A stretch of DNA of 64,000 nucleotides from a phage (GCA_033648345.1 GCA_033648345.1_4121.1); one strand, 5' to 3'. Shown: positions 15,869-34,966, numbered from the stretch's first letter. Notes: generated by a model not told the origin, from the sequence alone. Made by a program: numbers and translations.

Positions 15869-16993
15869 TTAATTATCTAAGCCACCAATTACACTGAACT
15901 GTGTGGTAACGTCTGAATTATTATCTATGTAAGTTCTTCTACCAACATAATATAGTTGTCCTTTAGCTTGAATAAAAGTTACGGTCCCTGTATTGAATGT
16001 TATAATATCATTGTATGTAATGTCAGGTGGTAGTGCTGCTGATAACGCAGTAACTTTACTTAATGCAGCACTAGCACTACCATTTATACCAGCAGCAATA
16101 CTACCAGTACCATAGAACTTATTATCTTTACCAATGAATACGTTGGCTGATGCTTGTGTAGCTGATGTTATTGCCTTACCAATTTGGAATGCGGTTCCTA
16201 TGGTGTATGGTGTGCTCCTGGCAGCGTCTATGCTTTGTGTATATCCATCCCCTAGCTGACCATTAACTTTGTCACCACATGAGTATAGAGTACCATTGTG
16301 GCTGTATATGATCCCACGGTTAGAGAAGCTAACAGCTTCTGCATTAGTCCATACTGGTGCGGTGTATGAGTTTACACGACTAGCGGTAGTTCCTAGACCT
16401 AGTATACCATATGTGTTATCACCACATCCAAACCATTGTCCAGAACTGTTTTGATAGAACACTGAACGTTCTGTTGATTCCATGCGTACAGCATCCACAG
16501 CACCACTTTTAACGAACGAAGTTGATGAGGATGTAGTACCAGTACCCAATGCACCATAAGTGTTTGTACCAATCGCATATATTGATCCTAGTGGTGTCAT
16601 AACACGTATGCAGTTATATCCCAATTGAACTTTACATTCAAATAGGTTGTCCCATATTTCAGGAACAGCAGAAAATAAATTTGTAATTTCGAACCATGAT
16701 GTTGTCGAACCAGTTAATCCTATACTGCTTTTGTTTCCTAAAATGAAAACAGTTTTGTCCTTCTTAATTATCCATGATGATAGGAAACCTATCTCACAGC
16801 TATGAACATTTGATTCTATTTGGGTAATATAATACTTAACTGTGTTATCACCCATGAATGCCGCAGCACCGGATGCAAAAAGGTTTCCAGTTTGTTTATT
16901 TAAAATGTAGTTATTGTTTCCATATACACTAACATCATAAGAACTTTCTTGTTTTTCGTTCCCATAATCAAATAACAATACGAAAGGTAACAT
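15869..16993 (-). CDS. RCC1-like beta-propeller repeat protein, MLPF family 1
   Basis: Starts MLPFVLLFDYGN; repeated YGxLGxG / NGQLGDG motifs about every 50 aa. Confidence 0.8.
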   Translation of the reverse strand: MLPFVLLFDYGNEKQESSYDVSVYGNNNYILNKQTGNLFASGAAAFMGDNTVKYYITQIESNVHSCEIGFLSSWIIKKDKTVFILGNKSSIGLTGSTTSWFEITNLFSAVPEIWDNLFECKVQLGYNCIRVMTPLGSIYAIGTNTYGALGTGTTSSSTSFVKSGAVDAVRMESTERSVFYQNSSGQWFGCGDNTYGILGLGTTASRVNSYTAPVWTNAEAVSFSNRGIIYSHNGTLYSCGDKVNGQLGDGYTQSIDAARSTPYTIGTAFQIGKAITSATQASANVFIGKDNKFYGTGSIAAGINGSASAALSKVTALSAALPPDITYNDIITFNTGTVTFIQAKGQLYYVGRRTYIDNNSDVTTQFSVIGGLDN

Positions 16994-17070
16994 GATAAAA
17001 TCTCCTTGTGTTATACTTTATTTAATCATTTTATAATGTACAATTTTACAGCGATTTAATTGAGGTACTC

Positions 17071-17721
17071 ATGAATAAAAGAAGTAAGTTCTATCAAGAA
17101 TATTTCACTAAACAGAAACGATTCACAAAAAAATACTTTACATCATCCCACCGACCAGTTGCAAGTTACAAACGTCCTAATACTAACTATCTTACTGGTG
17201 GCAAGTTTAGTGCAAAGTTCGAATTACTTATGCGTGAAAAGAATATCAAGATGCATTACGCAGAGACGAGAAAAAACTCATCAATTATTTGTTCTGATTT
17301 TCTTGAGTACGGTTGCTTAACTTATAAATTCAATGATGTATATTTGTATATTGATGTTGATTGTAACAGTACTCTTATGTTTGAGATTTCAATTCACCCA
17401 AATCACAACCGTTATATAAACATTAACTTGATTGATAAAGTACTGATTGGTATATCTAGTACTGATGGTGGTGGATTTGAATTTATTGCTTCAAAATATG
17501 ATGAAGATTTCGTACTTTACCCAGTACTTGATGATGTGAAAGATATACTCAATTCATTAAAAGGAAGTCAATACAAATTATCTGAAGAACAGCTATTTCA
17601 GTACTCACTTATTCATGATGATATCGAGATATACTTAGAGTGTGCGAGAATATTGGAGTATCTTTATAATGAACTAACAACAACTGGTAAAGTGACAGCA
17701 TTCACATTATATAATATGTAA
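17071..17721 (+). CDS. hypothetical protein, paralogue of 36579-37238 product
   Basis: 216 aa, basic N-term; LNSLKGSQYKLSEEQLFQYSLIHDDIEIY aligns with LKELQNKELTPEEEFMYSTVIDNPELY. Confidence 0.7.
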   Translation: MNKRSKFYQEYFTKQKRFTKKYFTSSHRPVASYKRPNTNYLTGGKFSAKFELLMREKNIKMHYAETRKNSSIICSDFLEYGCLTYKFNDVYLYIDVDCNSTLMFEISIHPNHNRYININLIDKVLIGISSTDGGGFEFIASKYDEDFVLYPVLDDVKDILNSLKGSQYKLSEEQLFQYSLIHDDIEIYLECARILEYLYNELTTTGKVTAFTLYNM

Positions 17722-17728
17722 AAGAAAA

Positions 17729-17747
17729 GCCAGTACATAGTACTGGC
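17729..17747. terminator. bidirectional hairpin terminator
   Basis: GCCAGTAC-at-AGTACTGGC between convergent genes. Confidence 0.65.
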
Positions 17748-17753
17748 ATTATA

Positions 17754-33626: not shown

Positions 33627-33671
33627 ATTCCCTCCCTTATTCATTATACTATATTTAATACAAATAAGAAA
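33627..33671 (-). promoter_or_regulatory. conserved -10-only promoter / SD cassette
   Basis: TTAAATATAGTATAATGAATAAGGGAGGGAATATG. Confidence 0.6.
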
Positions 33672-33690
33672 GCCAGTACAGAGTACTGGC
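33672..33690 (-). terminator. hairpin terminator
   Basis: GCCAGTAC-tct-GTACTGGC (minus strand). Confidence 0.7.
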
Positions 33691-33697
33691 CTATCAA

Positions 33698-34864
33698 TTA
33701 CGAAAAACGTGGATCATCAAGAACAAACACTGTACTACTTGGACCACCTTGTGTGGTGACAGCACTAGTACTGTAAAGAAAGTTACCATCCGTCATATAA
33801 GTTCTACGATTCGTACAAATAACTCTTACTTTATTCATATCGATATCAGGATTAGGTAATGGACATGAAGTATACACTGATACATCAGTACTTGTTCCTA
33901 TCCCCAGCGTACCTTCATTTGTGGTTGAACCGCTATTCAACCCACTAGCATATATACCACTGCTTGTAATAACAAAAGTGGCGTAGAATGGAGAACCTTC
34001 ACCTATATTTAATTTAGTTCCAGGTGGTTGTCTTGCCGCAGCAACCGCACCATATGCTTTCCCACCAGATGTGGCAAGATTACCAAGAGCACCATACTGT
34101 TGTTGTCCACCATTATACACTGTGTTAGTGCCATCACTGTTAGTGTGGATACCAATAGAATTATAGTTACTGTTGCTATATACTAACGCGGTATTCGAAG
34201 TAACTGTATTTCGTGTATATACTTTATATTGTTGGGTAAAATTACCACTAGTGGACGTACCCTGTACAGTTCCAGTGTAGTATATATATCCGTCTGTACC
34301 AATGAATGAGTGCATAACACTACCTGCAAAAATTTTTTCGGGAGTAACACCTGACGGTATTGTTGATTGTACAAATCTACCCACTACATTTGTTGTTGTA
34401 TTATTTCCCAATTGACCGGAGTCACCATAACCACTTGACCATATGGTATTGTTCTCAAGAAGAACACTAATTGATAATCTTGATAAAGCTATTTCTTTAA
34501 CATCACTTTCTAATGTATCAAAAAATGAAGTACAATTTGTCCAAGTGTTCACTACGCTAGAACTAACACCAATTTGTTTATTATCACCAGAACTATAATA
34601 ATTCCCATCATATGTTTGTATAAGTATAACAGAACTACCAACCCATACTTTATCAACTGAACCAAACGTTCTTGTCCATGTGGTAACTATATCCCCGCTA
34701 TTATTACCCAATCCAAAGCAACCACTACTATCTACACCTCGTACATATAAATCTCCTGAAGTCATCAGAACTGCACAGAATGATTGTGCACCTTTAACAT
34801 CTTTAATTGGCTCTGGTTCAGGTGCAACATTCCCATAATCAAACATTCTAACAAAAGGTAACAT
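33698..34864 (-). CDS. RCC1-like beta-propeller repeat protein, MLPF family 15
   Basis: True start MLPFVRMFDYGN at 34864; SGQLGNNTTTN, YGALGNLATSG repeats. Confidence 0.8.
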   Translation of the reverse strand: MLPFVRMFDYGNVAPEPEPIKDVKGAQSFCAVLMTSGDLYVRGVDSSGCFGLGNNSGDIVTTWTRTFGSVDKVWVGSSVILIQTYDGNYYSSGDNKQIGVSSSVVNTWTNCTSFFDTLESDVKEIALSRLSISVLLENNTIWSSGYGDSGQLGNNTTTNVVGRFVQSTIPSGVTPEKIFAGSVMHSFIGTDGYIYYTGTVQGTSTSGNFTQQYKVYTRNTVTSNTALVYSNSNYNSIGIHTNSDGTNTVYNGGQQQYGALGNLATSGGKAYGAVAAARQPPGTKLNIGEGSPFYATFVITSSGIYASGLNSGSTTNEGTLGIGTSTDVSVYTSCPLPNPDIDMNKVRVICTNRRTYMTDGNFLYSTSAVTTQGGPSSTVFVLDDPRFS

Positions 34865-34966
34865 ATTTCCTCCTTTATTCATTATATCATATTTACCCCA
34901 TAAACAAAACCCTTGACAACCTTCCAGTACTGATGTACTATAGAAGGAATATAAGGAGAACTACAC
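34865..34966. promoter_or_regulatory. divergent control region between the RCC1 array and the small-protein array
   Basis: Minus: TATAATGAATAAAGGAGG cassette; plus: TTGACA(34913)-N17-TACTAT(34936), AAGGAG RBS. Confidence 0.6.

Follow-up and report, generated by a model that had tools for sequence, protein, structure and literature searches.

What keeps a 12-residue peptide nearly constant at the head of 15 neighboring genes whose products are otherwise highly divergent? The question is raised by a 64,000-nucleotide stretch of DNA (GCA_033648345.1; hereafter the window) from an Asteriusvirus genome, a Rak2-like jumbo coliphage of the 121Q/PBECO4/phAPEC6 type infecting Escherichia coli, in which 15 tandem genes, all on the minus strand, occupy positions 15869-34864. 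We argue that the shared peptide, here called the tag, is rather probably an uncleaved virion-anchoring peptide carried by interchangeable binding modules, and that the array would constitute a late, hypervariable accessory island.

The tag follows the consensus MLPF[VA]R[ML][FV][DK]YGN in the window and heads all 15 genes, each of which starts with the DNA sequence ATG TTA CCT TTT G.. AG. .... All 15 matches of a degenerate 36-nucleotide tag pattern in the window fell within the array, and 100 shuffles produced none. After conceptual repair of the two frameshifted genes, mean pairwise identity was 81% in the tag versus 20% (median 19%) in the bodies; the genes starting at 26397 and 29998 form the only close pair of bodies (72%), and the best 12-column window elsewhere in the alignment reached 0.36. 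A Pro-rich linker with the consensus GN-x-AP-x-P-xx-IKK lies between tag and body. An initial annotation of the locus, made from the sequence alone, had described a near-invariant tag on highly divergent bodies, and the per-column check agrees with it. Its two tag versions also recur in our data (10 similar to MLPFVR[ML]FDYGN and 5 similar to MLPFARMVKYGN, matching the earlier listing), all 15 tag starts were verified at the positions it gave, and the plus-strand gene at 17071-17721 is, as described there, the only interruption of the array. The size range it gave for the products (about 370-450 amino acids) holds for the 13 intact genes (369-449 amino acids) and fails for the genes starting at 21500 and 24006, each of which carries a single frameshift. 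The end of the array, previously set at 34882, had to be moved to 34864, the first true ATG, 34882 being an in-frame ATG within the region of the ribosome-binding site (RBS).

The bodies of the array are predicted to be RCC1-like seven-bladed beta-propellers, as the initial annotation had proposed. Matches to Pfam RCC1, RCC1_2 or WD40_RLD were obtained for 14 of the 15 proteins, most of them with at least one repeat family above the gathering score, and the remaining protein, encoded by gene 3, is Pfam-negative with a marginal match only. AlphaFold 2 (AF2) modeled the product of gene 15 with a predicted local distance difference test (pLDDT) score of 86.5 and a predicted template modeling (pTM) score of 0.87, and Foldseek placed UVR8, the RCC1-like domain (RLD) of RPGR, RCC1, and the HERC2 RLD at the top of the matches to this model (E values of 3e-23 to 1e-16, TM-scores of 0.65-0.82, and identities of 15-22%). 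The model of the gene 3 protein is weaker (pLDDT 62.9), with an insert of about 100 residues left unmodeled and partial Foldseek matches to RCC1-like domains (E value 4e-9). Sequence searches of PDB with array proteins returned eukaryotic RLDs only, and a homologue search with one paralogue retrieved only 16 proteins, the family being too divergent for deep alignments. A C-terminal x-L-P motif, noted earlier in many of the proteins, is present in approximately 9 of the 15 but does not stand as a general feature: it is absent from tagged proteins of other folds (see below) and, being confined to RCC1-type bodies, belongs to the fold.

The tag, by contrast, is not accommodated by the modeled fold. 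In the AF2 models of both paralogues, the first ten residues are the least confident (residues 1-9 with pLDDT <50), and the tag, although it provides the best-conserved columns of the AF2 input alignment, is left unplaced, the first body strand being formed by residues 20-25, after the Pro-rich linker. This bears on the suggestion, made earlier as a simpler alternative, that the propeller is closed by the tag, acting as an N-terminal “velcro” strand. RCC1-type propellers do close with N- and C-terminal strands, and the tag has a strand-like hydrophobic pattern; however, the unplaced residues, the linker that parts the tag from the body, and the identical type of tag found on Kelch, LamG-like, and other folds lead us to reject this interpretation, to which we assign next to no probability.

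How far the tag extends beyond the window was assessed with tblastn, which matched approximately 60 of 50,697 phage records, all of 310-386 kb and including other Rak2-like jumbo genera. The tag-bearing relatives comprise Mimasvirus CBB and GAP32, Eneladusvirus Serratia BF, several Erwinia phages, Klebsiella phage fENko-Kae01, Yersinia phages fHe-Yen9-03 and fHe-Yen9-04, and Salmonella phages Munch, 7t3, SE_PL, and PHA46, and the tag can be written in general form as M-[LI]-P-F-x-R-[MIL]-h-x-Y-G-N. No tag match was found by tblastn in RaK2 and K64-1, which suggests absence there. In 596 Gb of bacterial genomes, the degenerate tag pattern produced 10 scattered singletons, within the calculated chance range, and a bacterial origin of the tag, or a role as a secretion signal, was rejected on this ground. 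Judged from these searches, the tag is restricted to one phage clade.

Within this clade, the tag is joined to more than one fold. The syntenic locus of CBB holds 7 tandem genes (CBB_548 to CBB_554), all starting with MLPF[SPA][RI]..[EKQA]Y[GA]N, whose bodies, 217-285 amino acids long, have either a Kelch propeller or a Laminin_G_3/ConA-like lectin fold. When a degenerate DNA scan of IMG/VR was combined with the GenBank loci, at least 96 distinct tagged open reading frames (ORFs) were obtained, or 125 with those of phages WPEC3 and vB_Ec-M-J included; the search patterns fixed some tag positions, and the percentages at these positions in the 125-sequence profile are thus partly set by the collection. 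The 96 bodies, with three folds confirmed by Pfam, fall into at least 11 BLAST clusters: an RCC1-like cluster (61 members), two or more LamG-like groups, Kelch proteins (matches up to 1e-32), a “DIDFSTQ” family of approximately 220 amino acids, a Gly-rich family, the CBB_536/537 pair, and singletons. A PDB sequence search returned nothing for the “DIDFSTQ” family of CBB. In vB_Ec-M-J, the slot corresponding to gene 15 is occupied by a Kelch-like gene with 37% identity to CBB_550 and an identical tag, MLPFVRMFDYGN. Both the sequence clusters and the fold assignments thus indicate that the tag is a separate, portable, and fold-independent element.

The Gly-rich tagged family, with GGGAGG... runs and no Pfam match, sits inside RCC1 arrays; its members are found in phAPEC6 (positions 7325-8059 of locus L001), 121Q (a 245-amino acid ORF, L021), and fENko-Kae01 (ENKO_525c, positions 3759-4562 of L005), the last having a GTG start.

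Is it the peptide or merely the underlying DNA that is conserved? Promoter function, translation initiation or gene conversion could, in principle, maintain the tag as a constraint on DNA or mRNA only, with a functionless peptide. Synonymous sites in the window are indeed too uniform, with a same-codon fraction of 0.83 in the tag versus 0.47 ± 0.03 expected from codon usage (maximum of 0.58 in 2000 simulations) and the rare codon GGG used in 14 of the 15 genes, and the conservation runs upstream through the RBS, promoter, and terminator. Nevertheless, most departures from the tag consensus in the window are either silent or conservative (11 synonymous versus 7 nonsynonymous, the latter mostly Met to Leu), and the four genes lacking a promoter cassette retain the peptide. 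In CBB, fENko-Kae01, and contigs of uncultured phages, the Pro, Gly, Arg, and Tyr codons of the tag are free to vary and conservation does not extend upstream, yet the residues M, [LI], P, F, R, Y, G, and N persist. Because codons vary outside Asteriusvirus while the peptide is preserved, selection acts on the peptide, and a purely nucleotide-level explanation appears very improbable. These comparisons point to purifying selection on the tag peptide across genera, with nucleotide uniformity as an added, genus-specific feature.

This added feature consists of a conserved block that includes a terminator hairpin, the motif TTAAATATAGTATAAT, and an RBS, and that precedes approximately 11 of the 15 genes, the other 4 being translationally coupled to their upstream neighbors. 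Besides the example given in Table 1, cassettes of this kind precede the ATGs at 16993, 18890, 21500, 22755, 24006, 27538, 29998, 31207, 32405, and 34864. The cassette motif has 14 matches versus 1.5 expected, 12 of them in the array and 11 of those upstream of array genes, and terminators are likewise enriched in the array (23 versus 7.4 ± 2.3 expected). Sigma-70-type promoter sites showed no enrichment in the array (82 versus 98 expected), and a reading of the array as an “early moron” was dropped for that reason. The motif TTAAATATAGTATAAT resembles the [ACG]TAAATA motif of CBB, which its authors located upstream of structural genes, including CBB_551 to CBB_553 (PMC5259590), as well as the (T)ATAAATA motif found upstream of head and baseplate genes in phAPEC6. 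These similarities are consistent with late expression of the array, by T4-type late transcription.

Among the hairpins of the region, those at 15838-15864, 17729-17747, 22798-22822, 24052-24070, and 27582-27611 share the palindromic stem CCAGTAC...GTACTGG, several of them being scored as terminators in both orientations; this stem motif also occurs in the published terminator list of CBB (Torf26). Neither Rfam nor tRNA scans of the window gave a match.

The variability of the array was followed by comparison with WPEC3 and vB_Ec-M-J, the closest flank match, CMSTMSU, having been set aside (an UNVERIFIED record with fragmented ORFs). Over 69-92% of its length, the flank (window positions 1-15800) shares 97-98% identity with relatives, whereas coverage of the array is at most 41% in any record. 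At a threshold of ≥90% protein identity, WPEC3 has ten of the bodies and vB_Ec-M-J eight, the rest having best matches of approximately 30-43%; gene order is permuted among the three genomes, and the repertoire is mosaic. When blastn blocks were aligned to WPEC3 and vB_Ec-M-J, every internal block end fell within -49 to +90 nucleotides of a tag ATG and none inside a body. Orthologous bodies can also differ in tag version, as illustrated by the gene at 24077-25186, which reads VRLFDYGN in the window and GRMVKYGN in its phAPEC6 orthologue (82% identity). It follows that the two versions are alleles at variable positions 5, 8, and 9, and that they track the genome rather than the body. The pattern fits exchange of whole cassettes, in which the conserved 5' block would undergo recombination and gene conversion.

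Published proteomes place tagged proteins in virions, as the initial annotation had anticipated. Electrospray ionization tandem mass spectrometry (ESI-MS/MS) of phAPEC6 virions recorded gp003, 005, 006, 007, 009, 010, 549, and 551 (PMC7247149), and in purified CBB virions the tagged proteins CBB_536, 537, 548, 549, 551, 552, and 553 were detected with coverages of 10-51% (PMC5259590); in fENko-Kae01, ENKO_525c is flagged in the GenBank record as detected by liquid chromatography (LC)-MS/MS. Two entries of the CBB peptide table involve the tag: LLQYGNK covers its residues 7-13 in CBB_553, and YANVIVEYATK begins at its residue 10 in CBB_548. With tag-derived tryptic peptides thus recovered, mature particles still carry the tag. 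A conserved [LI]-x-E or other Glu protease site was not found after it in the tagged proteins examined, and the earlier idea of a cleaved, T4-style capsid-targeting sequence is disfavored on both counts.

A different function has been suggested for the array in the literature. The phAPEC6 paper counted eleven RCC1-like copies, for which its authors speculated on a function in condensing DNA or in the inner body (PMC7247149), and array genes carry the GenBank names “regulator of chromosome condensation” and “DNA condensation protein”. The analogy by name with eukaryotic RCC1 and the fact that phAPEC6 and 121Q have an inner body speak for this assignment, but the proteins have no basic character: S/T/N/G residues make up 36-46% and charged residues 10-17% of the array proteins, the net charge is -9 to +3, the isoelectric point 4.9-8.4, and there is no basic tail, a composition that we read as that of fibre- or adhesin-type extracellular proteins rather than DNA-condensing ones. 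Furthermore, the folds of the tagged relatives, lectin and Kelch, have no connection with DNA, the copy numbers inferred from MS are low, and the RCC1 fold is a generic interaction scaffold. Given the neutral composition and the lectin and Kelch relatives, we regard the “DNA condensation” label as a fold-derived misnomer and the function that it implies as hardly credible. The tag sequence, or a shared N-terminus, is not described in the literature that we surveyed, including the phAPEC6 (PMC7247149), CBB, Sharanji, fEgEco12, and comparative jumbo-phage papers, the last three of which offer nothing of use on the family either. The initial statement that no such system had been described is therefore incorrect for the RCC1 array and its virion association, which are published and annotated, and, as far as the searchable literature goes, correct for the shared tag.

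Virion association does not by itself tell the inside of the particle from the outside. In the main rival reading, the tag would load modules into the prohead or inner body, from where they would be ejected with the DNA as anti-defense or takeover effectors. A short conserved terminal peptide on diverse bodies, encoded at a hypervariable locus between conserved flanks, is reminiscent of the internal protein (IP) loci of T4; the low copy number of the virion proteins and the hypervariability among near-identical phages, which fits an arms race with host defenses, point in the same direction, as does the inner body of 121Q and phAPEC6 (PMC5646251, PMC7247149). We nevertheless consider internal cargo unlikely, because the tag is retained in virions and followed by no conserved [LI]-x-E site, whereas T4 core proteins are, as far as is known, all processed, and because the bodies are near-neutral, S/T/N/G-rich surface-binder folds of the lectin and propeller types, not basic DNA-associated proteins. 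Peptides of the encapsulin type, moreover, are usually C-terminal.

Each gene encodes a 12-residue N-terminal peptide, a short Pro-rich linker, and a compact binding-type domain. In the anchoring model that we favor, the peptide, lying outside the fold and not removed, would take structure only upon binding a common site of a conserved virion protein, and docking would thereby fix a mixed set of modules onto the particle. Hair-like fibres are visible in published images on both capsid and tail of 121Q, phAPEC6, and CBB, with a fibre at the center of each capsid hexamer, and 4 of the 6 CBB-specific structural proteins weighed by the CBB authors as hair candidates are tagged. More speculatively, the modules would be displayed outside the virion, for example on hair-like or capsid-hexamer fibres of this type, and serve as auxiliary adhesins. 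Recombination in the block formed by terminator, promoter, RBS, and the 36-nucleotide tag would swap, duplicate, delete, and reorder modules, including those of other folds, and in the same block would homogenize tags within a genome.

The tag might instead be a recognition motif for an assembly factor or chaperone, or a homo-oligomerization motif, rather than a virion-binding element. It is conserved, unstructured in the monomer model, and retained; a Clp-type ATPase gene lies among the phAPEC6 baseplate genes; and monomer AF2 is blind to oligomers. On the other hand, across genera the arrays are accompanied by no candidate partner (CBB lacks a conserved counterpart of the interrupting gene), and a chaperone tag alone leaves the particle location of every MS-detected member unexplained. 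We rate this possibility as quite improbable on its own; it is also compatible with virion anchoring rather than exclusive of it.

Several points weigh against the anchoring model. Peptide counts for phAPEC6 array proteins are low (1-5 unique peptides each; PMC7247149), and, given these counts and the crude fENko-Kae01 preparation, some members may be only loosely or adventitiously associated with virions. Assignment of a late promoter depends on a motif that is short and AT-rich, and the breakpoint evidence is suggestive, as high-scoring segment pairs tend to end in shared cassettes wherever crossovers fell. The two frameshifted genes imply that not every array copy need be functional. An adhesin role of the modules is putative, and the same data would be expected from an uncleaved internal cargo peptide, as in encapsulins. 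Finally, no docking partner was identified, either in the window or among genes accompanying the arrays across genera.

Among the genes of the window, the interrupting gene at 17071-17721 is not homologous to the gene that adjoins the array of CBB. Two virion proteins encoded at 3437-3820 and 5060-6553 were also considered as docking partners and set aside, being highly charged and helical by eye, with no obvious link to the tag.

Taken further, the anchoring model suggests a universal 12-residue plug by which one conserved socket of the virion, probably located on the hair-like fibres of capsid and tail, could noncovalently display any compact binding domain, giving a mixed coat of up to approximately 17 adhesins reshuffled by cassette recombination; we put this forward tentatively, as a possibility somewhat less likely than not. 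If true, it would amount to phage display of a natural kind, driven by recombination, would account for a large gene family that is misnamed in approximately 60 jumbo-phage genomes, and would link this family to the hair-like decorations of 121Q, phAPEC6, and CBB. A 12-residue virion-incorporation signal could, if confirmed, be used to decorate jumbo phages with foreign domains. As the array is the most variable locus between 97-98% identical phages that have been proposed for therapy, it is a candidate determinant of adsorption and host range. More generally, a conserved promoter-tag cassette can double as a recombination joint for the exchange of modules across folds.

The layout of the array is given in Table 1. 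Both frameshifts also occur in WPEC3, with the same truncation of gene 4 and an identical 59-amino acid stub of gene 6, and are therefore real rather than sequencing errors. The orthologue of gene 4 is intact in vB_Ec-M-J (392 amino acids) and truncated in phAPEC6 (gp007, 269 amino acids), where the product is MS-detected in virions; the truncated products of the frameshifted genes may be functional, or full-length proteins may be produced by frameshifting.

Table 1. Genes of the tagged array and an example of the 5' cassette (all positions counted from the first nucleotide of the window; aa, amino acids).
Feature	Position	Strand	Product	Tag	Remarks
Tagged RCC1-like gene 1	15869..16993	-	374 aa	MLPFVLLFDYGN	Most diverged tag; Pfam RCC1 3.7e-13; 99% identity to copies in WPEC3 and vB_Ec-M-J
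Untagged interrupting gene	17071..17721	+	216 aa		phrog_34359; outside the tagged family
Tagged RCC1-like gene 2	17754..18890	-	378 aa	MLPFARMVKYGN	Pfam match
Tagged gene 3	18961..20310	-	449 aa	MLPFVRLFDYGN	No promoter of its own, translationally coupled to upstream gene; most divergent body of the array, with insert of ~100 aa
Tagged gene 4, frameshifted	20321..21500	-	264-aa ORF (20706-21500)		C-terminal remnant in other frame, to 20321
Tagged RCC1-like gene 5	21580..22755	-	391 aa	MLPFARMVKYGN	Pfam match
Tagged gene 6, frameshifted	22827..24006	-	59 aa in tag frame, which stops at 23827		RCC1-like body ORF 22827-23903 in other frame
Tagged RCC1-like gene 7	24077..25186	-	369 aa		Coupled to upstream gene, no promoter of its own
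Tagged RCC1-like gene 8	25195..26397	-	400 aa	MLPFARMVKFGN	Coupled; 72% paralogue of gene 11
Tagged RCC1-like gene 9	26408..27538	-	376 aa		
Tagged RCC1-like gene 10	27614..28795	-	393 aa		Coupled to upstream gene
Tagged RCC1-like gene 11	28805..29998	-	397 aa	MLPFARMVKYGN	
Tagged RCC1-like gene 12	30062..31207	-	381 aa	MLPFVRMFDCGN	
Tagged RCC1-like gene 13	31278..32405	-	375 aa		
Tagged RCC1-like gene 14	32478..33626	-	382 aa		
5' cassette (example)	33627..33692	-			Hairpin GCCAGTACnnnGTACTGGC and T-run (33670-33692), TTAAATATAGTATAAT (33643-33657), RBS AAAGGAGG, ATG
Tagged RCC1-like gene 15	33698..34864	-	388 aa		Protein used for the main AF2 model

The array is flanked by further paralogue arrays on the plus strand. 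At 34967-39973, approximately 25 tandem small ORFs of 59-77 amino acids form one paralogous family, running from M..KE[FY]Y...L to ...LI[YF]RY, and no ORF of at least 80 amino acids is present there except that at 36579-37238 and short overlapping ORFs at 36269-37413. The genes at 17071-17721 and 36579-37238 are weak paralogues (BLASTP E value 0.001, over the C-terminal 55 amino acids), each lying inside a different paralogue array, and neither has a Pfam match. On the other side, 7 tandem ORFs of 104-123 amino acids (13394-15833) converge on the tagged array, the three at 14725-15833 encoding hydrophobic, small membrane proteins; a membrane-protein array beside the tagged array is also found in CBB (CBB_540-546), phAPEC6 (gp012c-017c), WPEC3, and vB_Ec-M-J. 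The plus-strand genes at 3437-3820 and 5060-6553 encode paralogous charged proteins of 127 and 497 amino acids (phrog_16530 and phrog_20398, “virion structural protein”) that appear to match the MS-detected phAPEC6 gp037c and gp035c; an HNH/NUMOD4 homing-endonuclease gene (4513-5055) lies between them, with small uncharacterized genes around. The ORF-poor segment at approximately 40000-41700, which has no Rfam or tRNA match, forms the boundary between the small-ORF array and the downstream plus-strand genes, and is marked by a sign change in GC skew, a rise in G+C from approximately 0.33 to 0.38-0.39, and 4 copies of the tandem repeat CTGGGTGG at 41147-41180.

How does the array relate to known systems of virion addressing? 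In T4, the internal proteins IPI, IPII, IPIII, and Alt carry a capsid-targeting sequence (CTS) of approximately 10 residues, and the IP loci of T-even phages are hyperplastic. The array resembles them in combining a short, conserved N-terminal peptide with bodies that are unrelated and rapidly exchanged (at least 11 clusters, three folds being Pfam-confirmed), and in having tandem and individually promoted genes, 5' DNA flanks fit for exchange, and products found in the virion. It differs in that its tag is unrelated in sequence and uncleaved, without an [LI]-x-E site, and in that its bodies are large, neutral propellers or lectins, those of T4 being small and basic. Receptor-binding proteins are anchored through conserved N-termini in the second depolymerases of KP32/KP34-type Klebsiella phages, the branched tailspikes of CBA120 and G7C, and the multi-depolymerase sets of RaK2 and K64-1. 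With these the array shares the conserved N-terminus and variable C-terminal module, several modules per virion, mosaic exchange and, with RaK2, membership of the same wider phage group. Its anchor, however, is only 12 residues long and was not found in RaK2 or K64-1 by tblastn, and its modules are predicted to be single-domain propellers and lectins rather than trimeric beta-helix enzymatic spikes. Encapsulin cargo peptides, too, are short, retained peptides that address diverse cargo to an HK97-fold shell, but they are usually C-terminal, bind the shell interior, and have no sequence similarity to the tag. Eukaryotic RLD proteins (RCC1, UVR8, RPGR, and HERC2) share the seven-bladed fold and the RCC1/RCC1_2 repeats (PF00415, PF13540), whereas the array proteins are phage virion components with an address peptide, for which a Ran guanine-nucleotide exchange factor or chromatin role has no support. 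The published description of phAPEC6 (PMC7247149) concerns the same family and array, without the shared peptide, the other folds or the cassette structure. Because each of the two closest systems is separated from the array by one defining property, cleavage in the case of the T4 CTS and the trimeric spike in the case of the anchored receptor-binding proteins, we file the array as a variant of modular virion addressing, built on an already annotated family.

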